Shown here piece after piece: positions 3,281 to 21,279 of a stretch of 64,000 nucleotides of DNA. This DNA comes from an uncultured virus (IMG/VR IMGVR_UViG_3300020020_000024) (lineage: Duplodnaviria > Heunggongvirae > Uroviricota > Caudoviricetes), in IMG/VR virus record IMGVR_UViG_3300020020_000024; one strand, written 5' to 3'. Both the position numbers and the translations under genes were made by a program. Position 1 is the first letter of the stretch. Each line of letters starts with the position of its first letter. The notes under the pieces are model-generated. The model ran no database searches and had not been told where the DNA came from. It saw nothing but the letters and a program-made list of their open reading frames with translations.

Positions 3281-3289
3281 AATACTGCA

Positions 3290-4369
3290 ATGAAAGAAAC
3301 TGAAAAATCCAATACTGAGAAAAACCAACAAGCCACTTCTTCTCCATCTGCGGCGGCTGGTTATAATCCAATGGGGGGAGATGTTTTTGTTCCCCCATAC
3401 GCTAAGCCTGAATCGCAATTCAATCAGGGAGAGTTGAACCAGGATATTCCAGAGCCAACTTATACCGCACCACCACGAGAATCGGGTATTCCTAACACAG
3501 AAGAAAAGCAGGAGAAGAAGCCTAAAGAGCCATACAATCCTGATATGGCAGATTTGCCAAAGGGTGAGCAAGATGATGCTGCGGAAAAAATGGCAAGGTA
3601 TCTTGTAGGATTATATGAGCAAATAAAATTGCAGGGTCGTGGTCTTATCAAGATAAGTGAACGCAAGGTCAATAAACTTGTCAATAACGGTGAGATTGAT
3701 CCATCCTTAATTGTTCCGGTTGGTATCGATGAACAAAAAACGCTTGGTGAGTTTTTCAATTTCTATAATGAACAATGTTCGCATCTATTTAAAACAACAG
3801 AAGATTTTAAAGAAGCGATCATCCCACCATTAACAAGAGAACTTGCAAAGCGTGGTCATGGTATTACCGATGCACAATTAATTTTATTCTTGTTGTTTCA
3901 GGATCTAGCATTAGCGATTCAGGAAGGCGTTAAAACAAGAATGGTGTTAACCGACATGCTAAGGTTTGCAAAAGAGCATACGCAAAATTCACGTCAGCCG
4001 GGAGCAGTACATACGCCGCCTCCACCACCCCCGCCGCCACAATCACCAGGGCCGCATCAATCAGAAACAATAGTGCAAGAACCTGCGATGACAGTAGCAG
4101 TTGCTTTACAAGATCAAATCCTTGCTAAGCATATCCCGATGGTTAATTCAGGTGATGGAATGCCTCAGTATGGTGGAGCAAGTAAACTGAGAAAATTAAA
4201 AACTGTTGCCAATCAGGAAAAAGATTCGATAAAGAAAGATAGAAAACGTGCATCAAAGGTTCTTGATGAAACCAGGGTAAGAATGCAATCAACAACGAAT
4301 GTTCCAGATGGTAAAAAAAGAAAAGCCGGCAGACCTGCTGGAAGTAAAAATAAATTTAAAAAACCTTAA
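3290..4369 (+). CDS. hypothetical protein, translationally coupled to packaging ATPase
   Basis: 359 aa with a helical core, poly-Pro tract and basic C-terminus. Its TAA overlaps the ATPase ATG. Confidence 0.7.
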   Translation: MKETEKSNTEKNQQATSSPSAAAGYNPMGGDVFVPPYAKPESQFNQGELNQDIPEPTYTAPPRESGIPNTEEKQEKKPKEPYNPDMADLPKGEQDDAAEKMARYLVGLYEQIKLQGRGLIKISERKVNKLVNNGEIDPSLIVPVGIDEQKTLGEFFNFYNEQCSHLFKTTEDFKEAIIPPLTRELAKRGHGITDAQLILFLLFQDLALAIQEGVKTRMVLTDMLRFAKEHTQNSRQPGAVHTPPPPPPPPQSPGPHQSETIVQEPAMTVAVALQDQILAKHIPMVNSGDGMPQYGGASKLRKLKTVANQEKDSIKKDRKRASKVLDETRVRMQSTTNVPDGKKRKAGRPAGSKNKFKKP

Positions 4370-5187
4370 TGGCACGGTATCCGATACTAATGGCGGTTTG
4401 TGGTAAGCGTCGTATTGGAAAATCGCACAAGACGACAGAGATCATGCGTGATTATGTGCGCAGGGGAAGAAAGGTTTTGATATTTGATGTCACCAATGAA
4501 TATTCGGATAAGTCGAAGTTTCCTGATATAAAAGCAATTGCTTTAAAAGATGTTCCATTATTTGCGGCGCAAACAAGAGCAGAGATCAGGCGTGTGGCCC
4601 CATTCTTTGATGATGGAAGAAAGATGACTCTTGATGATATGGTTAATGTGCTTAACTGGATTCTATCTGTTTACTTCAATGGACTTTTACTTGTGGAAGA
4701 TATTAACAAGTATATTGCAGATACGATGACTAAAGATGTAATGGGTGCTATGTGTACGCTTGCGCATCAGGGTGTTGATCTTATCATGCAATTCCAGTCA
4801 ATAGGTAGATTAACCACAAAGGTCTGGCAAAATATAAATGTGCTTCGTATGCACAAGAATACCGATAGCGTGGATCGTCACAGAGGTAAGTTTGAAGATA
4901 AGTATGAGTATTTAAAAGTTGCTGAGATACTGGTCAACGAAGAATATAGAACAGGTAACGTAAGATTTTTTCTTCATGTAAATTTTGATGATGAAAAAAT
5001 AATTGCTGACTTACCGGAAGAAAAAATTCGCAAAGGTATTGAGCAATACATGAGTGAGAATTATAGAACAGTAACTCAATTATCAGAGCGTAGAGATGGA
5101 AAAGGAAAGAGAATTTATAGTTATGAAGCAGCTTTTAAAACAGAGGTTGATCGCATTTACAATAACTATTTCAGACCAGCGGCTTAA
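4369..5187 (+). CDS. FtsK/HerA-superfamily (A32/P9-like) genome-packaging ATPase
   Basis: N-terminal Walker A GKRRIGKS, Walker B LLLVED, and AHQGVDLIMQFQS (H-x-G...hhhhQ motif). 272 aa, immediately upstream of the putative capsid gene. Confidence 0.8.
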   Translation: MARYPILMAVCGKRRIGKSHKTTEIMRDYVRRGRKVLIFDVTNEYSDKSKFPDIKAIALKDVPLFAAQTRAEIRRVAPFFDDGRKMTLDDMVNVLNWILSVYFNGLLLVEDINKYIADTMTKDVMGAMCTLAHQGVDLIMQFQSIGRLTTKVWQNINVLRMHKNTDSVDRHRGKFEDKYEYLKVAEILVNEEYRTGNVRFFLHVNFDDEKIIADLPEEKIRKGIEQYMSENYRTVTQLSERRDGKGKRIYSYEAAFKTEVDRIYNNYFRPAA

Positions 5188-5311
5188 CGACTGGCAAATA
5201 TATTATTTGCCACTAAGTATAAAGTATCAAAAAGCCCCTTTAAATTTATCCCTGAAATAAAAACCTACGTTGTCTGAGCAACGTAATAACTAACCCAAAA
5301 ATCCATTTATC

Positions 5312-5446
5312 ATGAAAGACGCAAAGACTTATCTCGTTATGCTTGCTGTTGGCACAGCTTCTACACTACTTGGCCTGTGGGCATACGACCAAATCAACAA
5401 AGCAAAAGTTGCTAAACCTGCAACGACTGCGACAGCCGCATCATAA
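5312..5446 (+). CDS. small membrane protein (44 aa; not in ORF track)
   Basis: MKDAKTYLVMLAVGTASTLLGLWAYDQINKAK...; preceded by an AAAATCCATTTATC leader. Confidence 0.7.
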   Translation: MKDAKTYLVMLAVGTASTLLGLWAYDQINKAKVAKPATTATAAS

Positions 5447-5514
5447 AAAAAGATCATTAAAGTTTTTTCGATATAAAATCCAATCTCTTATTTTTTAACC
5501 AAAAATCCAATGTC

Positions 5515-6192
5515 ATGAATAAGGTACAACAGTACATCAATCGTGCAAGAGGTAATTCAAGTAACCAGCACTTGAACTTCGTGAACGATCAAAAAAGTTT
5601 TATCATGCAGCCGAACCTATACGCTAATGGCGCAGGTGCTGGCCCCGCTGCTCCCGTAAAAAAATCAATGCCGTATGCGGTCGTGGTGTCTAGTGCATCA
5701 GGCTCGGCAGTAACTGATTTTGATGTTCTCGGTGCATACGAGTACATCAACAACTCCGGCTTTACTGCTGCGGGTTCACTGGTGATCGGATCAATTACGA
5801 TCAGTTCAGCGATCCCTGGCGTAAGCTACCGTGAGTTGCTGTATCAAACACAGAACAATCCGTTCATGGTGGGTCAGACTTATCTGGCTTGTTCTTCACC
5901 AACAGCCCAAGTGCTGGAAGTGTTCACCATCATCACCAAAGATGCGAACGGTACGCAGGTAAGGATACCTATCGTTCCTGCGGTTGACCCTTATCAGCAA
6001 CAAGATGGTGTGAATGTTGTTGAGCAGGAATATAATATTGATGGTTTCACGAAGCTGACTTTCGCCCGTATTCTTGCGAATGCGGTAGTGACTATCAGGT
6101 TCTACCCATCAGTTAAAATTAATCCTGCCAATCCATTGGCTGGTAAGCCTGACACGGCTGCTTACGGTAACCCTGGTGTTATTCGTCAGTAA
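5515..6192 (+). CDS. putative major capsid protein (beta-rich, single jelly-roll size)
   Basis: Follows the packaging ATPase, is non-membrane and beta-strand rich, is followed by a strong terminator, and has two paralogues in the window. The fold is inferred. Confidence 0.6.
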   Translation: MNKVQQYINRARGNSSNQHLNFVNDQKSFIMQPNLYANGAGAGPAAPVKKSMPYAVVVSSASGSAVTDFDVLGAYEYINNSGFTAAGSLVIGSITISSAIPGVSYRELLYQTQNNPFMVGQTYLACSSPTAQVLEVFTIITKDANGTQVRIPIVPAVDPYQQQDGVNVVEQEYNIDGFTKLTFARILANAVVTIRFYPSVKINPANPLAGKPDTAAYGNPGVIRQ

Positions 6193-6214
6193 TTGAAACT
6201 GAAAACCTCAACAT

Positions 6215-6250
6215 AAAGGCAAGGCGAATTGAATTTGCCTTGCCTTTTTT
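6215..6250 (+). terminator. intrinsic terminator after capsid gene
   Basis: AAAGGCAAGGCGAATT-g-AATTTGCCTTGCCTTT followed by T-run. Confidence 0.85.
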
Positions 6251-6273
6251 AGTTCATCAATAAAATTTCAGCC

Positions 6274-6669
6274 GTGATAACTATTTATGAATATATAACG
6301 AGCAACAACCCCTATGAAGCAAGGGCGTTGCTCAATAAGTACGGCATCAGTTTGCAAGGTGCAACCGATAATGTAGATGTAGCGAATTTGCTTGAACAGG
6401 GTGTTAAGCAAATTGGAGAGCCATTGTTTCTGGACATTGTTTCGCTTCATCCAGATAAGCAGTTGCTGGAAGAAGTTTCAGGGAGGATCATAACTGCACC
6501 GTCATCTGAGCAGGGTGAAAAGAAATGTTCCTGCCAGGAAAAATCGAAATCAATTGCAGATTATGTAAATACTGCATCTTCAAATAATTTCTTAATGCAA
6601 CATGGCCAGATCATTTTAATAAGTGCTTTGGTCATTGGTATTGCAATTGTAGCATCATCAAAATCTTAA
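6274..6669 (+). CDS. virion membrane protein, C-terminal TM
   Basis: NNPYEARALLNKYG N-domain similar to the next gene; C-terminal IILISALVIGIAIV. Confidence 0.7.
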   Translation: MITIYEYITSNNPYEARALLNKYGISLQGATDNVDVANLLEQGVKQIGEPLFLDIVSLHPDKQLLEEVSGRIITAPSSEQGEKKCSCQEKSKSIADYVNTASSNNFLMQHGQIILISALVIGIAIVASSKS

Positions 6670-6674
6670 TCATC

Positions 6675-7334
6675 ATGAACGCAACAAGCATTGCTAAAAT
6701 ACCTGAAAAAAGAATAGATGAAATTCTTGCCCATGTGATGTTCCAAAAGAACTCACAGGATATTCGCACTTTACTTTTTCGTAATGGTGTGCAAGGCGCA
6801 TACGAAATGAAAGATTCGGATGCAAGATACGCTTTCTTAAAAGCGATTGCAGAAAGTACAACTTTCCGCAAAGAAGTTTCCGATTATCTAACCGGAATGG
6901 TAATGGCGCAGACAGAAGAAAGAAAAGGTTTCATCATGCAACCTAGTTATCTGAATCTATTTGATGCTTCTGATCCCACTGACGTTGGTGATGTGCCTAC
7001 CTCAACAACGCCAACCACCACAACAACTGCAACGAAAACTACTTTCTGGCAGAGCCTGGGTGGTGTTGCGACTGGTGATAACCTGAGCAAACTTTTTAAT
7101 GTAGGACTTGATACACTTTCAACAAAATTGCAGTCTGATATTAATAAAGATTCTGAGGAAAGGGCGTTACAGGCGAAGATGCTAGATCTTCAAATTGCGC
7201 AACAACAAGCGGCGGCTGCGGCTGGTGGTGGAACGAGTAAGGGTTTGAGTGCCGGTGCGTGGATCGGGATCATTGCTGGTGTCGGATTACTTGGATTCGG
7301 CGTTTGGTATTTCGCAATAAGAAAGAAAAAATAA
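6675..7334 (+). CDS. virion membrane protein, Thr-rich linker, C-terminal TM + RKKK
   Basis: TTTTT linker, AWIGIIAGVGLLGFGVWYF-IRKKK. Confidence 0.75.
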   Translation: MNATSIAKIPEKRIDEILAHVMFQKNSQDIRTLLFRNGVQGAYEMKDSDARYAFLKAIAESTTFRKEVSDYLTGMVMAQTEERKGFIMQPSYLNLFDASDPTDVGDVPTSTTPTTTTTATKTTFWQSLGGVATGDNLSKLFNVGLDTLSTKLQSDINKDSEERALQAKMLDLQIAQQQAAAAAGGGTSKGLSAGAWIGIIAGVGLLGFGVWYFAIRKKK

Positions 7335-7340
7335 TTCCGT

Positions 7341-7517
7341 ATGGAAGAAACAATAAAGAGCAGCATTTGGCAAGCATCACTAGGCACTATCGGTGCTGTT
7401 GGTGCTGTTATATGGGCTGCTAATTCTGGTCACAAAGGAAAATTTTGGTGGTTCATTGGTGGTGGAATGATTGGTGGTGCAATTGGAATGATCCTGGACT
7501 CGGCCAATAAAAAATAA
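7341..7517 (+). CDS. small glycine-zipper membrane protein (58 aa; not in ORF track)
   Basis: MEETIKSSIWQASLGTIGAVGAVIWAA...WWFIGGGMIGGAIGMIL; two hydrophobic segments. Confidence 0.7.
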   Translation: MEETIKSSIWQASLGTIGAVGAVIWAANSGHKGKFWWFIGGGMIGGAIGMILDSANKK

Positions 7518-7522
7518 GTGCT

Positions 7523-7753
7523 ATGGCAGAAACAACAGAAGGAGGCAGCATGATGAACAAGATCGCTTCTATCGGCACATCGGGGCCAGAAGATGAGGCG
7601 ACACATAAAAACAAAGCAACGATAAGCGGTGCTGCTGTTGGTGGACTGTTCGGAATGTATTATGGTTATTCAAAAGAAAAAAACATGCTGGTTTGTGGGA
7701 TCGTGGGAAGTGTGATCGGTGCAGTAGTAGCCAGGGTATTTACATCTGTGTGA
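7523..7753 (+). CDS. small glycine-zipper membrane protein
   Basis: GAAVGGLFG and GIVGSVIG GxxxG helices. Confidence 0.7.
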   Translation: MAETTEGGSMMNKIASIGTSGPEDEATHKNKATISGAAVGGLFGMYYGYSKEKNMLVCGIVGSVIGAVVARVFTSV

Positions 7754-7756
7754 TAT

Positions 7757-8065
7757 ATGACAGCAAATGAAATGCATAAACAGTATTTGAAAGATGGCGG
7801 TCAGCTTGGGTTCAAAGAGTGGATTGGTCGTGAGAAGAAAAAAGACTTTATGAACTTCGACGGACAGGCCACAGTTCCAATTAATCAACCTCTCACGGAT
7901 AGTATTTACAGAACGCTCGATCAATTGCACAGAACATCCGGATATCAGGACGAGCTTTCAAATGAATACTGGCTCGGAATGAAGAAAACAAATCTCTTGA
8001 TAGGCACATCAATAGTTGTGATTGCAATCATCGCTGTTGTAGCTTATAAAAAAGGTAAAAAATGA
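7757..8065 (+). CDS. virion membrane protein, C-terminal TM + KKGKK
   Basis: FMNFDG motif; C-terminal hydrophobic helix with basic tail. Confidence 0.7.
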   Translation: MTANEMHKQYLKDGGQLGFKEWIGREKKKDFMNFDGQATVPINQPLTDSIYRTLDQLHRTSGYQDELSNEYWLGMKKTNLLIGTSIVVIAIIAVVAYKKGKK

Positions 8066-8187
8066 ACGAAGCAAAATTTGAAGTAACAGGTGCTTTAGCG
8101 GTTTTATTTATAGGCGCAGTAGGTGTGATTACACTTGTGGGCGTTAGCCTTACAATTGCTTTAATTGGTAAATCATTAAAAAAGTAA
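8062..8187 (+). CDS. small hydrophobic protein (41 aa; not in ORF track)
   Basis: MNEAKFEVTGALAVLFIGAVGVITLVGVSLTIALIGKSLKK; ATGA overlap with the previous stop. Confidence 0.65.
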   Translation: MNEAKFEVTGALAVLFIGAVGVITLVGVSLTIALIGKSLKK

Positions 8188-8190
8188 CAA

Positions 8191-8442
8191 ATGAAAACAG
8201 TATTTATTTTAGTTGCTGGTGCTGCTGCCGGATACCTTATTTGGGATTACTGTAATAAAAATAAAAAACCTTGTCCTTGTCAGCATAAAGAGGAAGAAGT
8301 AACAACAGCAATAGTTGCTATTGCGCCGAAACAAGAAATTGTTTCTGATAGTGTTGTTGAAGTATATGATGCAAGCAGGAATGCAACGTTGCCAACGCCA
8401 CAAAGACTGATTGTTGGTGCGGGATCAACTGAATGGAATTAA
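8191..8442 (+). CDS. small N-anchored membrane protein
   Basis: N-terminal hydrophobic helix, KKPCPC. Confidence 0.65.
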   Translation: MKTVFILVAGAAAGYLIWDYCNKNKKPCPCQHKEEEVTTAIVAIAPKQEIVSDSVVEVYDASRNATLPTPQRLIVGAGSTEWN

Positions 8443-8465
8443 GAAAAAAGAAGATTGTATAATTT

Positions 8466-9257
8466 ATGAGATATGTTATTGGAACAAGATACCGTTCATG
8501 TGCAATCGTCATACCTATTGAAGCAAATAAGGTATGTAACATTTTTATAGAGGTTCATGATTCAAAAGAACCTCATTGTTATTTGACAAAACGTTTCAGA
8601 ATGTTCAACCAGGGTGAGAAAAGAAACATGGTTGTACAGATGCCATTAACTGGTAACGCTGTTGTTTGTTCGATCTTTGACAACCCTGATGATAAGGATG
8701 GTAATTCGCCTAATTTTAGCTGCGGAAAAATAAAATTAATGTCATTGCCGTCACAGCTTGATGTCGTTGATATGACTAAAAACCACATGAAAGAATTTAT
8801 TCGTTTCTGTGGAAGATTTTGTTTTAATGCAGGATCGCTGCCAACATTTGAAGATAAATTTTATGTCAGCGATGCAAAACATTTTCGTATTAAATATGTA
8901 AATACGATCATGGGCGACAGCCAGGATGAACAATTGACTCCTGCAAGAATTTCAAAAGTTACAAAAGTGATCGAAGCAGCGAAGTCAAAGTTTATCAACA
9001 TGACAGTTCCAGGACGCTTTTGCATCCTGAGTCATGAATATTGTCACTTGTTCGTTAATGAAGATATGCACGACGAGTTGGAGGCTGATCTCAATGGACT
9101 CTCAATATACCTGGGCCTCGGTTTTCCGAGAATAGAAGCGAAGGAAATATTTTATAGCACCTTTTATCAGTCACCAACTGAGGATAACTTAGTAAGGTTG
9201 CAGCATATTGAGAAGTTCATGGACAGCTATGAAAACATTGAACAGAAATATTTATGA
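8466..9257 (+). CDS. HExxH zinc metalloprotease (putative virion maturation protease)
   Basis: LSHEYCH followed by ELEAD (third-ligand ExxAD); located inside the structural operon. Confidence 0.7.
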   Translation: MRYVIGTRYRSCAIVIPIEANKVCNIFIEVHDSKEPHCYLTKRFRMFNQGEKRNMVVQMPLTGNAVVCSIFDNPDDKDGNSPNFSCGKIKLMSLPSQLDVVDMTKNHMKEFIRFCGRFCFNAGSLPTFEDKFYVSDAKHFRIKYVNTIMGDSQDEQLTPARISKVTKVIEAAKSKFINMTVPGRFCILSHEYCHLFVNEDMHDELEADLNGLSIYLGLGFPRIEAKEIFYSTFYQSPTEDNLVRLQHIEKFMDSYENIEQKYL

Positions 9258-9556
9258 AATCGAATTTAGAAGTCATAAAATCCGCAATAAGTCTTATCGC
9301 TGCAGTAACGATTGTTGGTAGCGGTTATTTCCTTTATAGGAACAACATTTGGATTCCGCAAGTTGATGTTATAAAGTATGATCCGCAAGTTGGAGCAGTA
9401 GTAGTGGTGAATGCAAAAAAGATGATAGTGAAAGAGAATCAGACGATCCATGCCGGTGGAATGTGGGGAGTACGATTAAGCGGAGATGATGAGCAGATTA
9501 CAAGACTTGAACTTTTAAAAAATAATTTGGTTTACAAAACCTATCAATTGAATTAA
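9254..9556 (+). CDS. N-anchored membrane protein
   Basis: N-terminal TM plus small beta domain. Confidence 0.65.
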   Translation: MKSNLEVIKSAISLIAAVTIVGSGYFLYRNNIWIPQVDVIKYDPQVGAVVVVNAKKMIVKENQTIHAGGMWGVRLSGDDEQITRLELLKNNLVYKTYQLN

Positions 9557-9558
9557 TC

Positions 9559-9651
9559 ATGAAAAACGTTTTACTGATAGTTGCGGTAGGTCTGGCAGTA
9601 GCTGCCGGATATACTTATTTAAAAACTCGTCAGCAAAATAAAGAGTCATAA
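9559..9651 (+). CDS. 30-aa membrane peptide (not in ORF track)
   Basis: MKNVLLIVAVGLAVAAGYTYLKTRQQNKES. Confidence 0.6.
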   Translation: MKNVLLIVAVGLAVAAGYTYLKTRQQNKES

Positions 9652-9687
9652 ATTTTTTTCTTATTCTTAACCTTTAAATTTAAAATC

Positions 9688-9825
9688 ATGGCAGACAATG
9701 TAGTAACAGCAAACGCTCCTACTAAATCAAATGCAATCGCATGGGCACTCGGCGCATTAGCATTAGGTGCAGTAGTTTTCGTGGTTGCTTTCGCTTGGAA
9801 GAAAGGCGAAAAAGCTGGTGCTTAA
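9688..9825 (+). CDS. 45-aa membrane peptide (not in ORF track)
   Basis: MADNVVTANAPTKSNAIAWALGALALGAVVFVVAFAWKKGEKAGA; A-rich leader. Confidence 0.7.
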   Translation: MADNVVTANAPTKSNAIAWALGALALGAVVFVVAFAWKKGEKAGA

Positions 9826-9905
9826 TATTAACCGGGGTCATTCCCGGCACATCCATGAGGATGGCCCCTGTTATTTTATCCATCTAAATCAATTAAGCAT
9901 TTATC

Positions 9906-10472: not shown

Positions 10473-10481
10473 TCCAGGCAG

Positions 10482-11482: not shown

Positions 11483-11487
11483 AACGT

Positions 11488-11880: not shown

Positions 11881-11920
11881 GAATTAAGTTTTTTACTTCC
11901 GGCAATTTAAAATCCTTTAT

Positions 11921-14365: not shown

Positions 14366-14405
14366 AAATTAGTCACTTATTTTTTAATCATATAAAAACA
14401 CGATC

Positions 14406-14633: not shown

Positions 14634-14643
14634 AAGTCGTGCG

Positions 14644-14678: not shown

Positions 14679-14781
14679 ATTAAACCGATTCGTTACGAAA
14701 TCCACATATAGTAATAACCAATGTAACTACTATTAGATACAAAAGTTATTTTATATTTTGCAACGAAATCCAATATTTTTT

Positions 14782-15204
14782 ATGAGCCACTATTTATTGC
14801 AGTCAATTCTTTTGCAGGGTTTACTTGGCGACATTGAGCCTCTTTTCTTTTTATGGTGTGCATTTTGGGCATGTATAGGAGTTATTATAACACTACTTGC
14901 CGGAACAATGGTTCGTGACCCGGAAAGCAAATGCAGCCCCAGAAAATGGTCTTTTTTATATCTTATAAGAGACAATTACAAAAGGATCATTTGGAATGCA
15001 GTTCTAATCTTCATAGCAATAAGATTTTATGAAGATATTACTGGATGGGCATTAACTCATTGGTCAGCTTTATGTATTGGTCTGTCTTTTGATACAATAC
15101 TGATGATCATAAAACAGAAATCAAGCTGGCTAGATCCATCAAAAAAAGCAATTTCTAAACAACCACCGCAACCCTCTGATAATGGAAAATCTTCTAACGA
15201 ATAA
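14782..15204 (+). CDS. multi-TM membrane protein (holin-like)
   Basis: About three hydrophobic helices and a charged C-tail. ATG14782 follows the AAATCCAATATT leader. Confidence 0.55.
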   Translation: MSHYLLQSILLQGLLGDIEPLFFLWCAFWACIGVIITLLAGTMVRDPESKCSPRKWSFLYLIRDNYKRIIWNAVLIFIAIRFYEDITGWALTHWSALCIGLSFDTILMIIKQKSSWLDPSKKAISKQPPQPSDNGKSSNE

Positions 15205-15216
15205 AATTGAGGTAGC

Positions 15217-15516
15217 ATGGAAAGGAAATTAATAAACAGTCAAGTTATGCCAGACGCAGACAAGTACACTCTTGAAATCATAGGTGCAGTAATAGGATTA
15301 ATGTGCTACTTCTTATTTACAGATGGTAGTGGATTTTTCATGATCCATATTGATTGGATCGCCTACATATTCTCGGCAATAGAAGTAGGATTTGTAACAT
15401 TCTTTTCCGGTTTCCTCACATTTCTGGGTAAGAAATTCGGCGAAAAATGGTATAAAAAGCATTTTGAAAAAGGCACAAAAGGCATGAACCAGGGCCGTGA
15501 GCCAACCGATCTGTAA
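15217..15516 (+). CDS. two-TM membrane protein (holin/antiholin-like)
   Basis: Two hydrophobic helices and a basic C-tail. Confidence 0.5.
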   Translation: MERKLINSQVMPDADKYTLEIIGAVIGLMCYFLFTDGSGFFMIHIDWIAYIFSAIEVGFVTFFSGFLTFLGKKFGEKWYKKHFEKGTKGMNQGREPTDL

Positions 15517-15624
15517 GAGGAAATTAATAGTTTGAGTTACAGAACTCAAATGCTTATATTAGCGACTGATATAAGATACTGACCAGCAATGGTTGGTATC
15601 TGAACCAATAAATCCAATATTACC

Positions 15625-16329
15625 ATGAGTCCAAAAACCAAAAGGATATTATTTATCTTGGCCCCACTTGTTTTAGGCGGTGGCGTCATTTTGTATTTGA
15701 ATCGTAAAAAGAAAACTCCAGTTAATGATAGAACAGATGCTGGTGATACAGATTCAAAACAACTTCAACAAACGTTGACATCATCAGCAAATTTATTCCC
15801 ATTAAAAAAAGGTAGTCGTGGTGATCTTGTAGCTGCGTTGCAAAATGCACTTATTGCCGCTTATGGTAAGGCGTTGCTTCCTAAGTATGGTGCTGATGCT
15901 GATTGGGGAACAGAAACCGATACGGCTGTTCAATCAAAATTGGGCATTACTCAAATTGCTGATAAAACTCAATTCAATTCGATCATCACAAGTCTTAAAA
16001 CAAGTGCTGCGGCGCAGCAGATTACAAGTGCTGCAATCAGCAAAGCTCAGCAGATTTTTAATAACTGGACAAATAATGCAGCGTTAAAATTAATTGTTAC
16101 TGCACCACTCAGTGCAGCAGTAGTAACGATTGATTATAACAAGACCGCTTCTTCTACTGGTAAGTTTGAAAATGTTGCCGCTAATACGCCGCTTCCAAGA
16201 GAGCATTACCAGCCTTATCTTGTTTTGTCTAACGGTAATCTTGTGGTTAAGCATATAACTACTTACTGGATCGGTGATCCGGATGTAACGTATCTCGTAT
16301 TCAGACCTGACACAACAACCTTGATTTAA
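15625..16329 (+). CDS. membrane-anchored peptidoglycan-binding (PG_binding_1) protein
   Basis: N-terminal TM; FPLKKGSRGDLVAALQNAL...GADADWGTETDTAV. Confidence 0.8.
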   Translation: MSPKTKRILFILAPLVLGGGVILYLNRKKKTPVNDRTDAGDTDSKQLQQTLTSSANLFPLKKGSRGDLVAALQNALIAAYGKALLPKYGADADWGTETDTAVQSKLGITQIADKTQFNSIITSLKTSAAAQQITSAAISKAQQIFNNWTNNAALKLIVTAPLSAAVVTIDYNKTASSTGKFENVAANTPLPREHYQPYLVLSNGNLVVKHITTYWIGDPDVTYLVFRPDTTTLI

Positions 16330-16339
16330 AAAGCCTTGT

Positions 16340-16519
16340 ATGAAAAAAAAGTACGGAGTTATTATGGTCGTGGTAGGTGCTTTGATGGTGAGTGCAGGTT
16401 TATATCTTTTACTCAAACCAAAAAAGAAGCAAGAGGATGATTTGGCGGTAAACAATACTACTACAAATAATACATTAGTAAATAGTCTTAGTGAAGAACA
16501 ATTACTTCACGGAGATTAA
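16340..16519 (+). CDS. small N-anchored membrane protein (59 aa; not in ORF track)
   Basis: MKKKYGVIMVVVGALMVSAGLYLLLKPKKK... Confidence 0.7.
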   Translation: MKKKYGVIMVVVGALMVSAGLYLLLKPKKKQEDDLAVNNTTTNNTLVNSLSEEQLLHGD

Positions 16520-16537
16520 AATACAAATCCAATATTA

Positions 16538-16804
16538 ATGAATAAGAACACTAAAACATTTTTGCTCGTACTAGGTGTTGCGGCTGTTGGATGGATGGGA
16601 TGGCAAGCCTGGAAAAAGAAGCAACAAAGCGATGCGGTTGAGGCCGCTAAGAAAGAAGAATTGAAAGCTGGTAGTACAGCCCCGGCAACATCAACTGGTG
16701 CGCAGGTTGTAAAGGATGTTTCAGAAGGTGTAATGATCCCAACGGATCAAGTGACAAGTTATGCTACTCCTATTGAGCAGGATACTATTTCAAATGTGAT
16801 GTAA
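16538..16804 (+). CDS. N-anchored membrane protein
   Basis: TM followed by WKKK; AAATCCAATATTA leader. Confidence 0.7.
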   Translation: MNKNTKTFLLVLGVAAVGWMGWQAWKKKQQSDAVEAAKKEELKAGSTAPATSTGAQVVKDVSEGVMIPTDQVTSYATPIEQDTISNVM

Positions 16805-16806
16805 CA

Positions 16807-17313
16807 ATGAAAGAGCAAGCAAATTATATCGGTGCCGGTAGCATGGATCAGTATTTTAATATACTGCCCATAATTACCGCTATTGCTACATCGCCAGACG
16901 AGGAAGCAGAACGTTTGAAAGCATATAATGAAATAGCTGCAAAGTATCCGATCACGTCTAAGATTGATTGTTTGACGATCCGGGCCGTAATGCAAGACAT
17001 GGATGGAAATATTGAGGACATTGAAAAGCAAAGGGTTTTAGGAACTACTGACCGGGTAGGACTTCGTTACATACTAGCATATCAAAGAAGGAAATCCGAA
17101 TTTGAAAGTATATGGAATCAGATGCAATGTGCCGATAAACTAGCACAAGCTAAAGACGAACTTTTTCTCGATCAGCAATACGATCAACTTGAAAAGGTAC
17201 AGAAGTTAGGACAGGATGCAGGTAAGGCTGCAACGTATGTTATTTGGGGAATGCTTGGTCTTGTTGTTGTAGCAACCGGAATTTTCATGTATAAGAAATT
17301 AAAAAAGAAGTAA
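16807..17313 (+). CDS. virion membrane protein, C-terminal TM + KKLKKK
   Basis: Paralogue of 10482-10997. Confidence 0.75.
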   Translation: MKEQANYIGAGSMDQYFNILPIITAIATSPDEEAERLKAYNEIAAKYPITSKIDCLTIRAVMQDMDGNIEDIEKQRVLGTTDRVGLRYILAYQRRKSEFESIWNQMQCADKLAQAKDELFLDQQYDQLEKVQKLGQDAGKAATYVIWGMLGLVVVATGIFMYKKLKKK

Positions 17314-17666
17314 TGATTGATCACTCGGCCGAAATGTTAAATGCAATTGATCCTGTTTCTGCTGTTACGCAGATTGGTACTGCTACGGCTAATACCATTG
17401 CAGGAATCAGTGACATGAACAAGCGCCGGGAGTTCGACCAGGCACTTCAATCATTAACCAACAGCCAGCAGCAAGAGTTAAATGAAAAACTACTTTCTGC
17501 AAATACGCAGAATGATAGACTGCGTATCCTTTCGGAATCAATGACCAATTACCTGATAGCAAACCAGGCCAAAGGAACAACAAGCAATATTTTTTTATAC
17601 GCAATAGCAGGAGTTCTTGCTATTGGTTTATTTGTAGGTGTTATTTATTTAAGTAAGAGCAAATGA
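17313..17666 (+). CDS. virion membrane protein, coiled coil + C-terminal TM
   Basis: Gln-rich coil, FLYAIAGVLAIGLFVGVIYL. Confidence 0.7.
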   Translation: MIDHSAEMLNAIDPVSAVTQIGTATANTIAGISDMNKRREFDQALQSLTNSQQQELNEKLLSANTQNDRLRILSESMTNYLIANQAKGTTSNIFLYAIAGVLAIGLFVGVIYLSKSK

Positions 17667-17968
17667 TGAAACTAACAGTTGACGATAGAAAAACGATACT
17701 CGGTGCCGTGGCCGGATTTCTGCTTTTTGCATGTGTTATTTATTTGTTTGATACAAACAAAAACGCAGAAGAAAAAGTTTCAGAAAAAGATATTGAAGAT
17801 GTTGTTTCGGCTTACCAGGATGCAATGAGTGCAAATGAAAGTAAAGAGTTTCTGGACGAACTTAATCGGGGATTAATGAAAGAATACGGCCTAGCTGTTT
17901 CTTATCGTTCAACGGACGGAAAGTTTATTGTAAAAAATAAAGCTGGCAACACTATTAGAGTTGTATAA
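17663..17968 (+). CDS. N-anchored membrane protein
   Basis: N-terminal TM; overlaps the previous stop. Confidence 0.65.
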   Translation: MMKLTVDDRKTILGAVAGFLLFACVIYLFDTNKNAEEKVSEKDIEDVVSAYQDAMSANESKEFLDELNRGLMKEYGLAVSYRSTDGKFIVKNKAGNTIRVV

Positions 17969-17970
17969 AA

Positions 17971-18498
17971 ATGAATAATGAGCAAATTGTATATACTGCA
18001 GCCAGAGAAATGGACGTACCTGATCACGGTGCGGTTTTAGTCGTTCAACAAGCTATACATGAGTCAGCCGATTTTTCCTCTCACGTTTTTCAGACAGATA
18101 ACAACGCCTTTGGAATGAAAGTTCCTGCTGTAAGAAAGTCTCCTTACATAGCGGGGCCAAGTACTATTGTAATGGTGAGTGAGGGCAAGCAGCCATACGC
18201 TCATTATGACAGTTTATCTGATAGCGCAAAAGATCTAGTTCATTGGTTAACGTATAAAGGAATTGATTGGACTAAGATCACCAATGAAACAGAGTATGCA
18301 GCGTTTTTAAAAAAGAGTGGTTATTATGGCGATAGCCAGGATAATTATACTGATGCGTTGCTGCGTCATTATACCGAAGCAAAGAACGCCATAGGTAAGG
18401 CAATAAGGGAGAATCAGGGTGTCACTATTGCTACCGGATTAACTTTATTTGCAATGCTTGGATTTTATATTTACAAAATCGCAACGAGGAAAAAATAA
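17971..18498 (+). CDS. GH73/glucosaminidase-like muralytic enzyme with C-terminal membrane anchor
   Basis: QAIHES, NNAFGMK, YAHYDSLSDS, LKKSGYY motifs; C-terminal TM + RKK. Confidence 0.75.
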   Translation: MNNEQIVYTAAREMDVPDHGAVLVVQQAIHESADFSSHVFQTDNNAFGMKVPAVRKSPYIAGPSTIVMVSEGKQPYAHYDSLSDSAKDLVHWLTYKGIDWTKITNETEYAAFLKKSGYYGDSQDNYTDALLRHYTEAKNAIGKAIRENQGVTIATGLTLFAMLGFYIYKIATRKK

Positions 18499-18921
18499 AT
18501 GTCCGTATATACGCCTACCATAACCATTGCTTCAACTCCTGCGATAGAAATAACAGCAGCTGGCTTGACCTATGATGAATTAATTGCTTCTTTTGGCAAT
18601 TACAATTACCTTATTCGTTGTTTATTTATCCAGGCTTTAAGCATTGATCAAACATTACAGGAACTCACCTTTCAAACATATGATTCAAATGGGCAGATGT
18701 ATATCAGGACAGTATCACCACCTGTGAGCCCGTATCAATATCAGCCATCCCTTATGATGGATGTTCGTGAACAATGTATAATGATCAATGGAAGGACATC
18801 CTTATCATTCAATCTACTTCCGCTTGAAACATTAAGTTTGATGATCTATGCCGCCAGAGATTATGTTGGGGAATATCTTGAACGTTTTGGAATACCAAAT
18901 AAAATGCAGGTGCAGATATGA
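18499..18921 (+). CDS. minor capsid-like protein, paralogue of 5515-6192
   Basis: GLTYDEL / DSNG / VSPYQYQ / INGRTSLSF align with GVSYREL / DANG / VDPYQQQ / IDGFTKLTF. Confidence 0.7.
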   Translation: MSVYTPTITIASTPAIEITAAGLTYDELIASFGNYNYLIRCLFIQALSIDQTLQELTFQTYDSNGQMYIRTVSPPVSPYQYQPSLMMDVREQCIMINGRTSLSFNLLPLETLSLMIYAARDYVGEYLERFGIPNKMQVQI

Positions 18922-20162
18922 GTACTCAGGAGTTTACTATAAAGATTCGTAATAATCGAAATGCGCTGATCCCTATTTCAATATTAGGGAATCCATCTTT
19001 TAGCAGCACATTTAATGCGTTCCGAACGTTTAGTTGGGATATTACACCAGAAACTTTTGCTGATCCAAATTTTAGCATTCAAATAAAATTAAATGCCGCA
19101 CCTGCTTATACAACTTATGGTGGACAGATAAAAACATTGTCAATTGGCGGTTTAGTGGAAGCCCTTAATTTTTTAAACATTGGCCTTTTTTGGATTGAAA
19201 CATCTGGTTCAAATAGTTATATCGTTACAGCCAATGATACTTATTTATACAATGAACTTACAATAGGCAGCAACACATTCGCAATTCAATGGACTGCACG
19301 AACGCCGGCGTTTCTAGGTTCTTTTCATGGTGTTGCTTTTGGTAATGGACTTTTTGTTGCTGTTGATGGTTCAGTTAGTACAAATTTCGTTATGACCTCA
19401 CCTGATGGGATTAACTGGACTGCACAAACCACTCCATTGGGATCGGGATTAGCGGTAATATTTGACGGAAGCCAGTTCGTGGCATTATCAGGAGCAGGTG
19501 TAGCAAATCAAATATTTACCTCACCTGATGGAATTAACTGGACTCAACAAACCACACCATTTGTTATCTCCACATGGCAAGACTTGGCGTTTGGTGGTGG
19601 GGTTTATATTGCTATTGGAATAAATGGAGTGAATACGATTGTGATGACATCTCCTGATTCAGTTGTATGGACATTACAAGCTTCTCTTTCCAATATAAAT
19701 TTAAGAGCGATAACATACGCCAACGGAGGATTTGTAGGCGTTGGTTCATCGGCTGCTTTTCCAACACAATCTGTTGCCACAACAGTCAATGGTGTTGCAT
19801 GGACAATTCAAACAGCATCAGTAGGAAACGACTGGAGAGCCATTGCATTTGGTAACGGAGTATTTGTAGCGGTTTCCAACAATGGTTCAGGAGATCGTGT
19901 AATGACATCTCCTGATGGAGTTAACTGGACAACGAGATCATCTGCTGCGGATCAGACATGGCAAGTAGTAGGATATGGTAACGGAGTATTTGCAGCATTA
20001 GCTATTGCTGGCGGCGGTACTGCCCCAATGTATTCTCTTGATAACGGTGTCACCTGGACGCTGACAACTTCGCCTCCGGGGGATTGGGAATCGCTCACAT
20101 TTGGCAATGGAATGTTTGTGGCCGTGGCTCCTAATTCTACGAGGGTAATGACGTCTCCATAA
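18918..20162 (+). CDS. receptor-binding/spike protein with Asp-box (BNR) beta-propeller repeats
   Basis: About 6-7 repeats of (F/Y)GNGxFVAV...TSPDGxNWT. Confidence 0.8.
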   Translation: MSTQEFTIKIRNNRNALIPISILGNPSFSSTFNAFRTFSWDITPETFADPNFSIQIKLNAAPAYTTYGGQIKTLSIGGLVEALNFLNIGLFWIETSGSNSYIVTANDTYLYNELTIGSNTFAIQWTARTPAFLGSFHGVAFGNGLFVAVDGSVSTNFVMTSPDGINWTAQTTPLGSGLAVIFDGSQFVALSGAGVANQIFTSPDGINWTQQTTPFVISTWQDLAFGGGVYIAIGINGVNTIVMTSPDSVVWTLQASLSNINLRAITYANGGFVGVGSSAAFPTQSVATTVNGVAWTIQTASVGNDWRAIAFGNGVFVAVSNNGSGDRVMTSPDGVNWTTRSSAADQTWQVVGYGNGVFAALAIAGGGTAPMYSLDNGVTWTLTTSPPGDWESLTFGNGMFVAVAPNSTRVMTSP

Positions 20163-20215
20163 TATAATTCCCTTATCTTTAGTTCATATTTTTTAACCAA
20201 ATCAAAACAACTTTT

Positions 20216-20806
20216 ATGAAAAACCTATTTGGAAAAATTGCTCTGCTTGTTACCGTTATCGCCGCAGGTTATATGCTCTTAACTGCATTTGGCGGCACTA
20301 AAACTTTTTGGGGATGGGATGCTGCTCAAACAGGATGGGGTTGGAAAATCTTTATGATAGTCATCCTTCTTGCTACTGCTCACGTTTTTTATTATATCAC
20401 TAAGAAAGGCATATCATTCAAGGCTGCTCACGGTGCATTAATTGTTTTACTGCTCGGTATTGGATTTGGCGCAAGCACCGGATTTAAATTTACCGCAGGT
20501 GATATCAAGCAAAGGATCACTTATCTTAATACTTATGGACAGGTAACCGACACTACTATACTTTTTAAATATTATGAAGATTTTTACCACTTCAATGATA
20601 ACCCTGAATTAAAAAAGTATGTAATAAAATATCGTGAACTTCCAGGACGCAATTGCTGGAATGAACATATACTTGCATACCTGAGAGGCGATACTACTGA
20701 GACATATAAGGGTGCAAAACCAAGTAACGCACCATCTGCTGACAGTTGTGCTTTTAAATGGCATACTGGTGCATATGAAATGGACTTGAAAGTTAAATTG
20801 AGATGA
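20216..20806 (+). CDS. multi-TM membrane protein with soluble C-domain
   Basis: Three hydrophobic segments. Confidence 0.65.
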   Translation: MKNLFGKIALLVTVIAAGYMLLTAFGGTKTFWGWDAAQTGWGWKIFMIVILLATAHVFYYITKKGISFKAAHGALIVLLLGIGFGASTGFKFTAGDIKQRITYLNTYGQVTDTTILFKYYEDFYHFNDNPELKKYVIKYRELPGRNCWNEHILAYLRGDTTETYKGAKPSNAPSADSCAFKWHTGAYEMDLKVKLR

Positions 20807-21279
20807 TACACCAACTACCAGCTATATGGCAGCTTATCACCTGGGCCATGATACAGATACTTATGATCGTATTTACACGATTTGCAAGTTTGCATCATGG
20901 CCCAGCGATAAATGCTTTCAGGAAATACATACCAGTTGGCCAGATAACTGAATATGAAAACCCGTTTCATAAATGGGCATTGGGAATGGCGATTCTTGCG
21001 GACGCCTTTCTCTGTATTATCCTCTTACTACTAACCAATATTTATTTACCATTTATAATGGGTCTGATTTTAATTCTGGGATGGTATGGAGTTTTCTTTG
21101 ACAGGTGGGTAAATGAGCAGGTGCCCGGGCGCAGTAAATATCATGTCTCCGAACATTCCACGATCGACAGTTGGTTTATAAAAAAGTACGGAGCAAGGGC
21201 GGGTGAGCAGAAGCAATATTTTGGAATGGCGCTAATTATCATCCTTAACACTATCGGCATTTTTCTTATCCTTTTGTAA
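20803..21279 (+). CDS. multi-TM membrane protein
   Basis: Four hydrophobic segments; last gene before the strand switch. Confidence 0.65.
   Translation: MIHQLPAIWQLITWAMIQILMIVFTRFASLHHGPAINAFRKYIPVGQITEYENPFHKWALGMAILADAFLCIILLLLTNIYLPFIMGLILILGWYGVFFDRWVNEQVPGRSKYHVSEHSTIDSWFIKKYGARAGEQKQYFGMALIIILNTIGIFLILL

Follow-up and report, generated by a model that had tools for sequence, protein, structure and literature searches.

The + strand of positions 1-21279 of the window (the whole 64,000-nucleotide stretch analysed, part of a contig of 132,863 bp) probably represents the late virion-morphogenesis module of a ~133-kb dsDNA virus of the PRD1/STIV plan, whose host is probably a member of the Bacteroidota and which would belong to an undescribed lineage of large viruses of this style. 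A first-pass annotation had proposed a large, membrane-containing virus of tailless type from an uncharacterised lineage, and this interpretation is supported by the jelly-roll fold predicted for the capsid candidate and by the absence of tailed-phage hallmark genes from the scans described below. All features given here with coordinates up to 21279 lie on the + strand.

The packaging ATPase and the jelly-roll proteins

The 272-aa product of 4369-5187 is a P-loop ATPase (Walker A GKRRIGKS, Walker B LLLVED) and a candidate for the genome-packaging ATPase, with B204/A32-like features within the FtsK/HerA superfamily. In a Foldseek search of the PDB with its AF2 model (pLDDT 93.4), the genome-packaging NTPase B204 of STIV and STIV2 fills ranks 1-14 (E 5.9e-10 to 1.3e-8, TM by target 0.64-0.71), the first other match being SIR2/HerA (E 1.9e-6), and VirB4, TcpA and Zot structures follow at E ~1e-5, which leaves B204 three orders of magnitude in E-value ahead of HerA, FlaH, Zot and VirB4. 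At the level of sequence no similarity to STIV B204 was detected, HerA (8xau, E 0.0043) being the best PDB profile match, and Pfam recognises DUF87 in 34 of 40 homologues and Zot in 19 of them. As modelled, the protein is a packaging ATPase of the PRD1/STIV type, structurally closest to B204, which we take to be the only solved packaging ATPase of that lineage, and the A32/P9-like packaging ATPase of the first-pass annotation is thus found at 4369-5187. Given the structural class of the model, it would pump the genome into a preformed particle via a special vertex. The gene directly 5' of it (3290-4369) is not the ATPase gene; it encodes a separate 359-aa protein that has homologues at the same position in the four relatives compared (G001-G004) and no family in Pfam or PHROG scans. 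Its disordered N-terminus, followed by a poly-Pro linker and a basic 'KKRKAGRPAGSKNKFKKP' tail, is suggestive of what is possibly a DNA-binding accessory for packaging or scaffolding. Between the ATPase and the capsid candidate, a 44-aa hydrophobic mini-protein can tentatively be read from the sequence (5312-5446), with a mean hydropathy of ~1.5 by hand calculation, under the threshold of the scan for membrane proteins.

The resemblance to secretion ATPases bears on a different origin of the locus, in which a non-viral, linear plasmid-like or vesicle-forming mobile element would use a Zot/VirB4/TcpA-like ATPase and membrane proteins as a transfer or secretion apparatus. The Zot assignments in nearly half of the homologues, the matches to VirB4, TcpA and Zot structures, the abundance of membrane proteins in the module and the polyvalent-protein domains of relatives (DUF2958, ART-PolyVal and Zeta_toxin), which are typical of conjugative elements and phages, would all suit such an element. 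However, B204 precedes every secretion ATPase by about 1000-fold in E-value, relaxase, coupling-protein and VirB-type families are absent from the general PHROG and Pfam output for the window and its relatives, and lysins, spike or fibre domains, jelly-roll paralogues, many HNH and homing endonucleases and a virus-type module for replication and nucleotide modification (PHROG and Pfam scans) accompany the ATPase, so that we regard a mobile element as very unlikely.

For a virus of the PRD1/STIV plan, the candidate for the major capsid protein is the 225-aa product of 5515-6192. AF2 predicts with confidence the jelly roll that the first-pass annotation had expected here, as a single domain with a core at residues 51-200 (pLDDT ~85-95) made of eight strands and two helices. 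The gene is followed by the strong intrinsic terminator that had likewise been noticed (6215-6247; 15-bp stem with 6 GC pairs, 3-nt loop and T run), and its product is 39-48% identical to homologues in conserved position in G001-G004. A database clustered at 90% identity yields 502 homologues at E<=1e-3, and at 50% identity the family falls into 944 clusters or more, not one of which is named; none of its members occurs among 50,697 GenBank phage records and no description of it was found in the literature searched. The best VIA Z score of the model (6.7) is to the carbohydrate-binding module of AlgX, level with a nepovirus capsid, ahead of PR772 chain O (6.1), the FLiP major capsid protein (5.3) and PRD1 P31 (4.7). 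In Foldseek, the PRD1 spike P5 and knobs of the TNF/C1q type rank first, all with E of at least 1.3e-3, and the BFVD matches are collagen/C1q-like knobs and minor tail proteins at E ~1e-3. Because these fold matches are generic, the case for a shell-forming major capsid protein is drawn from conservation and gene context, and since TNF/C1q knobs score like capsid proteins, a trimeric knob or a decoration protein is conceivable as well. Judging from its fold, high conservation, position beside the ATPase and own terminator, the protein would form the icosahedral shell. Viruses of the PRD1/STIV plan characteristically have a jelly-roll major capsid protein, double or, in Helvetiavirae, single, with the jelly rolls oriented vertically within pseudo-hexameric capsomers.

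A 140-aa paralogue of the capsid candidate is encoded 12 kb away at 18499-18921, the relationship being evident from profile alignment of the two families (hhalign probability 97.7%, E 2.1e-12 over 102 columns) and from a BLASTP match to the capsid homologue of G004 (E 8.6e-8). The stop of its gene overlaps the start of that for a 414-aa repeat protein (18918-20162), a spike candidate with repeated 'MTSPDG.NWT' or propeller-like 'SPDG.NWT' units and weak EPTP/BNR matches in Pfam. The paralogue is a candidate for the penton at the vertices or for a further capsid protein, and paralogy and gene order suggest that it and the translationally coupled repeat protein may form vertex or spike complexes. 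In relatives the jelly-roll paralogues number as many as six, one form in G005 being a tandem of two domains that is not an orthologue of the conserved capsid candidate, for which AF2 predicts one jelly roll only; the family therefore appears to serve more than one role.

This multiplicity, together with the prominence of spike and knob proteins among the strongest fold matches, would also fit a particle of another design, enveloped, pleomorphic or with a different shell protein, with a role for the 225-aa protein at the vertices, in a turret or on the surface, and we know of no precedent for a shell of single jelly rolls with a 157-residue core holding 133 kb. Against this design, which we judge distinctly unlikely, stands the gene core common to the window and G001-G004 (PAP2, 359-aa protein, ATPase, jelly roll, a small transmembrane protein, a protein with an HExxH motif and the 140-aa paralogue), which holds no further conserved beta-rich candidate, and the 225-aa protein, conserved, encoded beside the ATPase and followed by its terminator, has the traits to be expected of a major structural protein.

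Membrane proteins, lytic enzymes and spike candidates

The module had been annotated as 3290-21279, of which the start has to be moved, as two membrane proteins, a PAP2 gene and a 138-aa gene precede it at 397-3280. These encode a 313-aa Gly-rich tail-anchored and a 110-aa Pro-rich single-pass membrane protein (397-1680; hydrophobicity scan and sequence), a PAP2-superfamily phosphatase (1835-2482; PF01569, E 2.6e-11) with 27-36% identity to homologues in all four relatives compared (BLASTP), and a 138-aa protein (2864-3280) that is conserved with G003 (BLASTP E 2.9e-8) and has no PHROG or Pfam family.

When ORFs were scanned for a hydrophobic 19-mer on the Kyte-Doolittle scale, the lenient threshold of >=1.6 assigned 22 of the 35 ORFs of the + strand module (397-21279) to the membrane, one of the 22 being a small ORF one base out of frame. 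At >=1.9 the figure is 16 of 35 vs five of 67 in the - strand region (Fisher p=1.3e-5), and a similar enrichment is seen in the syntenic module of G003 (22 of 62 ORFs vs 13 of 159, p=2.6e-6). The figure of about 20 membrane proteins given earlier thus holds (16-22 of 35), whereas the Lys-rich tails ascribed to them are confined to about five: eight proteins of the module are tail-anchored (transmembrane segment <=12 aa from the C-terminus), four of which have K-rich ends (RKKK, KKGKK, AKKK and KKLKKK), and a glucosaminidase described below ends in TRKK. After the terminator, five small proteins are encoded together (131, 219, 76, 102 and 83 aa; 6274-8442), four of them tail-anchored and single-pass and the fifth with a hydrophobic N-terminal stretch, the 131-aa and 76-aa proteins being kept in relatives. 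Further along, five of six ORFs at 9254-12475 have a single transmembrane segment, this group including an LEA_2 protein (10997-11482; PF03168, E 3.4e-6) and, at 11921-12475, a beta/gamma-crystallin repeat protein; seven more small ORFs, mostly with a predicted transmembrane segment, lie at 14758-17968, and two multi-pass membrane proteins (20216-21279) are the last genes of the module. The enrichment and the analogy with PRD1 and PM2 suggest a possible internal membrane of the virion, and the ~16-22 small single-pass proteins, many of them tail-anchored, may reside in such a lipid layer, specific to the virus and enclosed by the shell.

The product of 17971-18498 is a GH73 glucosaminidase (PF01832, E 1.4e-11) whose C-terminal part includes a hydrophobic anchor, a candidate for a membrane-tethered lytic enzyme; the GH73 gene had been annotated earlier, as had that for the LEA-2 protein, and both identifications hold. 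The peptidoglycan-binding gene of the same annotation is present as an ORF (15625-16329), with a weak assignment (E 2e-6 to PHROG endolysin families for residues 22-103; Pfam PG_binding_1 E 0.77 only). At the edge of the window, an ORF that begins upstream of it (2-400) has a C-terminal CHAP-like peptidase domain, which at E 2.9e-17 matches phrog_1259 ('baseplate hub subunit and tail lysozyme') over profile positions 1025-1143 of 1179 only and Pfam CHAP under the cut-off (E 0.0013); its homologue in G003 is a stand-alone 175-aa protein. By the same analogy with PRD1 and PM2, the GH73 enzyme and the other lysins may act in wall penetration or exit. The 263-aa protein at 8466-9257, which has an HExxH motif (SHEYCH) and is 32-39% identical to homologues in all four relatives, finds nothing in Pfam even at E 1, and low-scoring ESM Atlas matches to DUF4344/M48 peptidases and GH16/CBM sandwiches offer the lead that it is probably a beta-sandwich joined to a zincin-like metallopeptidase. 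The spike genes reported earlier correspond to the 414-aa repeat protein and to a 517-aa Gly-rich protein (12812-14365), a fibre or spike candidate on account of its sequence repeats, with no family in PHROGs or Pfam.

Tailed-phage hallmarks in the window and its relatives

TerL, portal, HK97 capsid, sheath, tube and tape measure all went undetected when the 104 ORFs of the window were scanned with PHROGs and Pfam, in line with the earlier statement that terminase, portal, HK97 capsid and tape measure are lacking in the 64 kb. The search in the virus's own genome covered these 64 kb of the contig, the other 69 kb of which lie outside the window, and was extended to three relatives of 102-132 kb that carry matching synteny of ATPase, jelly roll and membrane proteins, in which TerL, portal and HK97 capsid are also absent. 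No Caudoviricetes hallmark was recognised in 137 ORFs >=110 aa of G003:C9, 83 ORFs >=130 aa of G004:C1 or 74 ORFs of G001 and G002, and scanning of all six frames of G005, G003:C9, G004:C1, G001 and G002 with Pfam gave no match to Terminase_6N, TerL_ATPase, Phage_capsid or Phage_portal. Identical scans were positive for three of the four families (Terminase_6N, capsid and portal) on contig C29 from the same MAG as G003:C9, a positive control from within the data. Very divergent versions of portal and HK97 capsid, which the folding of each ORF would bring out, may have escaped such scans.

The only 'terminase large subunit' label in the window is that of phrog_2666, weakly matched by two HerA-type ATPases, the packaging ATPase candidate (E 6.7e-5) and a 611-aa HerA-like protein at 22930-24765 (E 1.5e-13). 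An ORF of G002 that matches three TerL-labelled PHROGs (best E 1e-41) was rejected as TerL, since Pfam identifies it as an AAA_5 ATPase with a LAGLIDADG/intein insert, to which we attribute the PHROG matches. The ESM Atlas neighbours carry an automatic Uroviricota label.

A tailed phage of the Caudoviricetes would account for these observations if its TerL, portal and HK97 capsid were too divergent or lay outside the window and if the ATPase, jelly rolls and membrane proteins were accessory, serving as decoration or receptor-binding knobs, in superinfection exclusion or in lysis. The 225-aa fold is as close to TNF/C1q knobs and PRD1 P5 as it is to capsid proteins, large ORFs of the relatives (529-1664 aa) have no assignable fold, and tail-fibre, baseplate-hub and tail-lysozyme PHROGs are matched, in each case over part of a long profile only and by lysin- or knob-type ORFs; for tail tube, sheath, tape measure and baseplate nothing beyond partial profiles was matched in the window, G003:C9 or G004:C1. 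In phages, knobs that bind receptors generally rank with the proteins of lowest conservation, and we know of no B204-type ATPase that is part of a tailed phage. Here the genes conserved most strongly encode the B204-like ATPase and the jelly roll, and what the window and G001-G004 have in common includes no large protein resembling TerL or a portal. Genome size speaks for a tailed phage, as 100-133 kb is usual for these and without precedent among prokaryotic jelly-roll viruses, whose genomes measure 7-18 kb according to PMC5894146. With the hallmark genes absent from the three relatives and recovered from C29, we consider a tailed phage unlikely and infer a tailless virion of the PRD1/STIV plan.

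The relatives place this virus in an unnamed lineage that is widespread in metagenomes, with genomes of ~100-133 kb. G005 (102 kb) is rated 100% by CheckV, and G003:C9 (132,486 bp) has an 11-bp tandem repeat at both ends in inverted orientation, telomere-like, and therefore looks like a complete linear genome. Indirect signs suggest that the host probably belongs to the Bacteroidota: Shine-Dalgarno sequences are not used, TAnnTTTG repeats resemble promoters, and two MAG bins point the same way.

Comparison with known viruses

Turriviridae (STIV, STIV2) provide the closest structure of the ATPase (B204, E 5.9e-10, TM by target ~0.7) and share the overall plan, in which a small ATPase of the FtsK/HerA class is combined with a jelly-roll capsid protein and with membrane proteins. 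STIV has an archaeal host, a ~17 kb genome and a major capsid protein with a double jelly roll, in contrast to the ~133 kb, probably bacterial host and single jelly-roll capsid candidate found here.

Tectiviridae (PRD1, PR772) likewise combine a packaging ATPase, jelly-roll structural proteins, many small membrane proteins and virion-type lytic enzymes, and the small jelly-roll gene beside a spike gene recalls penton P31 and spike P5 of PRD1; P31 matches the 225-aa model at Z 4.7-6.1, and P5 is its top Foldseek match. Inverted repeats also end G003:C9, there as short 11-bp tandem arrays. However, tectiviral linear genomes of ~15 kb are about nine times smaller than that of the candidate virus, no protein-primed family B DNA polymerase or major capsid protein with a double jelly roll was recognised in the window or G003:C9 (PHROGs, Pfam), and the window matches no tectivirus structural PHROG apart from the generic phrog_2666; the tectiviral combination of ~15 kb, inverted terminal repeats and protein-primed polymerase is thus not present.

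Two single jelly-roll major capsid proteins and an internal membrane are described for Helvetiavirae (Sphaerolipoviridae, Simuloviridae, Matsushitaviridae) in the sources cited (PMC12642351, PMC12643093). The larger and smaller paralogues, the A32-like ATPase and the proposed internal membrane resemble this design, whereas helvetiaviral genomes measure 16-31 kb, their hosts are haloarchaea or Thermus and their two capsid genes are adjacent, beside that of the ATPase, unlike the distant paralogues here, of which the smaller is coupled to the spike gene; no window protein shows sequence similarity to known members via PHROGs or PDB. Finnlakeviridae (FLiP, phiCjT23) are membrane-containing, tailless Bacteroidota viruses with jelly-roll capsids. 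Their capsid chains match the 225-aa model at Z 5.3-5.4, not above background, and they differ in an ssDNA genome of ~9 kb, a major capsid protein with a double jelly roll and the lack of a B204-like packaging ATPase.

Taken together, we see even chances that these are the first bacterial viruses above 100 kb without any tailed-phage machinery, a global, unnamed clade of icosahedral Bacteroidota viruses with an internal membrane, a single jelly-roll capsid protein with paralogues including tandem forms, B204/A32-type packaging and linear genomes with telomere-like inverted tandem repeats. If so, they would far exceed any known bacterial virus of jelly-roll build, offer a living example of the transition from single to double jelly roll and form the prokaryotic counterpart, in size and complexity, of the large eukaryotic jelly-roll viruses.

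The candidate packaging ATPase and the jelly-roll protein

The first-pass annotation, a reading of the sequence, had proposed the assembly module of a large, tailless, membrane-containing Bacteroidota virus, and all of the features that it listed were found at or near the positions it gave, within the + strand block of the window (1-21279). The 272-aa ATPase (4369-5187, + strand; Walker A GKRRIGKS, Walker B LLLVED) shows weak HerA/FtsK signals by sequence methods: it matches phrog_2666 (E 6.7e-5), DUF87 is found in 34 of 40 and Zot in 19 of 40 of its homologues, and its profile matches a HerA structure at E 0.0043. Single-sequence searches of the PDB returned nothing meaningful for this protein or for the jelly-roll protein encoded next to it. 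The AF2 model of the ATPase is confident (pLDDT 93.4), and ranks 1-14 of the Foldseek search against the PDB are all the B204 genome-packaging NTPase of STIV and STIV2 (E 5.9e-10 to 1.3e-8; TM by target 0.64-0.71), followed by SIR2/HerA (1.9e-6) and by FlaH, Zot, VirB4 and TcpA (about 1e-5). Since B204 represents the A32/P9-type packaging ATPases among solved structures, the earlier call of an A32/P9-like enzyme is supported by structure comparison.

The 225-aa capsid candidate (5515-6192, + strand) is encoded a short way downstream, and the strong terminator described after its gene is indeed there, with a 15-bp stem (6215-6247, + strand). Its AF2 model, built on a 63-sequence alignment, consists of an N-terminal helix, a disordered Gly/Ala/Pro linker (residues 13-50), a core of residues 51-200 (pLDDT about 85-95) that forms an eight-strand beta-sandwich with two helices, and a disordered tail. 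The expectation of a jelly roll was thus borne out by AF2 and Foldseek, without finer resolution. The top Foldseek matches comprise a Bdellovibrio fibre, TNF and C1q besides the PRD1 spike P5 (E 1.3e-3), and an all-against-representatives fold search gave Z scores of at most 6.7, with capsid and penton chains mixed with carbohydrate-binding modules; the virus chains include nepovirus, PR772 chain O (6.1), PBCV-1, phiCjT23, FLiP (5.3), PM2 (4.9) and PRD1 P31 (4.7). A BFVD fold search yielded only weak knob- or collagen-type rows (E about 1e-3), and ESM Atlas scores of up to 0.78 were uninformative. Because the fold searches give a jelly roll and no more, the capsid part of the earlier claim rests on gene context and not on the fold. 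Conservation in the lineage is highest for the ATPase and for the 225-aa protein, which keeps 39-48% identity in relatives whose remaining proteins can hardly be aligned; its gene lies next to the ATPase gene and has its own terminator, and the shared core contains no other conserved beta-rich protein; for these reasons we infer that it forms the shell.

A 140-aa protein (18499-18921) is a paralogue of the 225-aa protein (hhalign 97.7%, E 2.1e-12, 102 columns), and the stop of its gene overlaps the start of the gene for the 414-aa repeat protein, the spike candidate (18918-20162). This arrangement is as expected of a penton-plus-spike pair; alternatively, the paralogue may be a second capsid protein. 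A few family members contain two tandem jelly rolls, namely P0252 (397 aa) and P0281 (411 aa). In the 102-kb relative G005, which has six jelly-roll family matches in all, a 397-aa tandem protein with a DPYQQQ motif in each copy (L038:8001-9194) is encoded near a single-domain paralogue of 154 aa (L038:5424-5888). The tandem protein was considered as the MCP of the lineage and rejected, since G005 also has an ordinary 233-aa orthologue near the ATPase, to which the tandem protein is an additional paralogue.

Search for tailed-phage genes

Tailed-phage genes, the finding that would weigh most heavily against a tailless virus, were looked for in the window and in five relatives with the same gene order and were not detected. 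None of the 104 window ORFs matched terminase, portal, HK97 capsid, sheath, tube or tape-measure families. The relatives comprise G001 and G002 (39-42 kb, CheckV 52-55% complete), the contigs G003:C9 (132,486 bp) and G004:C1 (101,828 bp), and G005 (102,228 bp, CheckV 100%). PHROG searches found no hallmark genes in 137 ORFs of G003:C9 (all those of at least 110 aa, of 223 ORFs of at least 60 aa), in 83 ORFs of at least 130 aa of G004:C1 (four ORFs across fetch joints left out) or in 74 of the 128 ORFs of G001 and G002, mostly outside the shared module. A six-frame Pfam scan of the contigs of the five relatives likewise found no Terminase_6N, TerL_ATPase, Phage_capsid or Phage_portal. The same scan detected a trio of Terminase_6N, portal and capsid on C29, a contig of the MAG that holds G003:C9, and therefore works in the assembly from which that contig comes. 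A particle without a tail is the reading that we favour.

Some matches might be taken to point to a tail, as both the window and the relatives have partial-profile PHROG matches labelled tail fibre, baseplate hub and tail lysozyme. The baseplate hub/tail lysozyme match of the first window ORF was rejected as tail evidence because it is confined to the final 120 positions of the profile; a CHAP-like region and a stand-alone 175-aa gene in G003 also argue against it. An 833-aa ORF of G002 matches three TerL-labelled PHROGs (best E 1e-41) and also intein-prone helicase-loader and primase PHROGs; it was dismissed as a TerL, since Pfam identifies an AAA_5 ATPase into which a LAGLIDADG/intein element is inserted. 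Intein/LAGLIDADG insertions in G002 affect a glycosyltransferase-like ORF (L007:22-1338) and an AAA_5 (MoxR-type) ATPase (L007:6615-9113), and free-standing HNH and homing endonuclease genes are numerous in the relatives. Among the large ORFs of the relatives, several (529-1664 aa) are without family assignment and could be read the other way; some large ORFs carry the polyvalent-protein domains DUF2958, DUF5661, ART-PolyVal and Zeta_toxin.

Membrane proteins, genome layout and host

At a strict hydropathy cut-off, membrane proteins are predicted for 16 of the 35 ORFs of the + strand module versus 5 of 67 in the - strand region (Fisher p=1.3e-5), and the syntenic module of G003 shows the same excess (22/62 versus 13/159, p=2.6e-6); the particle may accordingly contain a membrane. 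The first-pass annotation had described numerous membrane proteins with Lys-rich tails: their number was confirmed and eight proteins are tail-anchored, but Lys-rich tails occur in only about five. The LEA_2 (10997-11482) and GH73 (17971-18498) genes on the + strand pass the Pfam cut-offs as anticipated, while the peptidoglycan-binding region (15625-16329, + strand) exists with weak support. A conserved 359-aa protein with a basic tail (3290-4369, + strand) is separate from the ATPase and has no family match in PHROGs or Pfam. Every relative compared also conserves a 263-aa HExxH-motif protein (8466-9257, + strand) that is without a Pfam model and belongs to a large virus-only family of its own (Atlas clusters of 66-115 members), its ESM Atlas leads being weak and limited to peptidase and beta-sandwich. 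Copies of the motif CTTATTTTTTAAYCA at 5487-5501, 14376-14390 and 20185-20199 each precede a + strand start codon by 14-17 nt, one of these starts being that of the capsid gene; the motif was rejected as a late-gene motif, as it is not commoner than in shuffles (4 found versus 2.1 expected).

A long - strand block (21232-60945) follows, and the window ends in a short + strand part. Family scans of the window ORFs assign replication, nucleotide-modification and host-takeover functions to this block, including a Phg_2220_C replication initiator, a sliding-clamp-like protein, a ThyX-like enzyme, DUF1599, MazG, several DNA methyltransferases, glycosyltransferases and a sigma-70-family factor. A second HerA/DUF87 ATPase of 611 aa (22930-24765, - strand; PF01935 E 5e-9, phrog_2666 E 1.5e-13) adjoins the initiator, a WDGH-domain protein and the sliding-clamp-like protein, and BLASTP found no homologues of it in G003 or G004. 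Four DNA methyltransferase-like genes (one C5, two N6/N4, one Eco57I-like; 30079-37925, 51286-52050 and 61465-63984) co-occur with the ThyX-like enzyme, a double DUF1599 'nucleotide modification' protein, a pyrophosphatase and MazG, a gene set which suggests that the virus DNA may be heavily modified. The sigma-70-family factor, with regions 2 and 4 (49531-50202, - strand), is a candidate switch for late-gene transcription. Two long non-coding gaps measure 512 nt (58351-58862, with an AT-rich palindrome at 58691-58732) and 413 nt (27243-27655); no Rfam family was found over the window, these gaps included, and ARAGORN found no tRNA genes in it.

Evidence for a Bacteroidota host is indirect. 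A Shine-Dalgarno core precedes 7 of 103 window genes, which equals background, and the leaders are A-rich, a combination typical of Bacteroidota. Three intergenic regions of the - strand block (46579-46631, 56811-56843 and 57287-57339) contain an AT-rich repeat of 33-53 nt that carries TAnnTTTG in gene orientation, the Bacteroidota -7 promoter consensus; the repeats probably serve several genes as common promoters of this type in the early or middle phase. Among six MAG records with relatives, two are labelled Sediminibacterium and Flavobacteriales and four are assigned to other phyla, so that binning is unreliable as host evidence.

The 225-aa protein is recorded on a 132,863-bp contig, which makes the window about half of its contig. 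A search with an exact 40-mer for the remainder of this contig found nothing in viral, metagenome and genome collections. G003:C9 is close to it in length, has 30-35% GC throughout and phage-like genes end to end, and bears inverted terminal repeats (L019:1-90 and L025:12300-12486) in which four to five copies of the 11-bp unit GGGAATTTCGT in inverted orientation are followed by G-rich repeats; the contig is apparently a whole linear genome capped by telomere-like ends. A tRNA-like stretch lies just inside its right end.

Distribution and comparison with known viruses

In a 90%-identity database, 502 of 871 candidates are homologues of the 225-aa protein at E<=1e-3 (contigs up to 157,760 bp) and 348 of 627 are homologues of the ATPase (contigs up to 177,213 bp), none with an informative name. 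The closest relatives reach 72% identity, on contigs of up to 86 kb. A profile search of 1.84 billion representatives found at least 944 clusters (50% identity) of the jelly-roll family at E<=1e-3 and 485 at <=1e-10. A protein-guided metagenome scan yielded only distant relatives, on contigs of 1.7 kb and on a single one of 29 kb. Neither tblastn with the ATPase and jelly roll nor blastn with window positions 1-8000 gave a match in 50,697 GenBank phage records. Full-text searches of open-licence papers and bioRxiv found no description of a comparable lineage, though an earlier one may exist elsewhere; moraphages, the subject of the nearest title, were considered and rejected, as PMC12619734 presents them as tailed jumbo phages that reach 307 kb.

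Most likely, a membrane vesicle that carries the small proteins coded by the virus would be the base on which capsomers of the jelly-roll protein are put together, along with vertices made of its paralogue and bearing spikes; a linear genome would then be packaged by the B204-like ATPase, and the membrane-tethered GH73 and other lysins may act at entry or exit. The analysis shows the fold classes, the paralogy, the pattern of conservation, the excess of membrane proteins and a lack of detectable tailed-phage genes, from which the capsid role, the membrane and the tailless form are inferred. If this is true, the lineage would expose a blind spot, its jelly-roll family being nameless in protein databases and absent from the GenBank phage records, with Atlas neighbours auto-labelled as tailed phages, and it would offer a tractable Bacteroidota system for the assembly and DNA delivery of large membrane-containing capsids.

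Characterised prokaryotic viruses that combine a jelly-roll capsid with an FtsK/HerA packaging ATPase all have small genomes, and within this structural lineage only eukaryotic viruses are known to have giant genomes; a bacterial lineage of 100-133 kb with this module would mean that prokaryotic viruses, too, can build on this design at large scale. Prokaryotic double jelly-roll viruses span 7-18 kb in a 2018 metagenomic census (PMC5894146), and sphaerolipoviruses reach about 30 kb. PRD1, STIV, PM2 and the sphaerolipoviruses share the design proposed here, but the lineage fully shows no defining feature of any one of these families, and compared with their genomes of 30 kb and 15 kb its own is about four to nine times the size. 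The individual parts are well known, whereas a genome of this scale, a single jelly-roll candidate that has several paralogues, and telomere-like ends are unfamiliar in this company.
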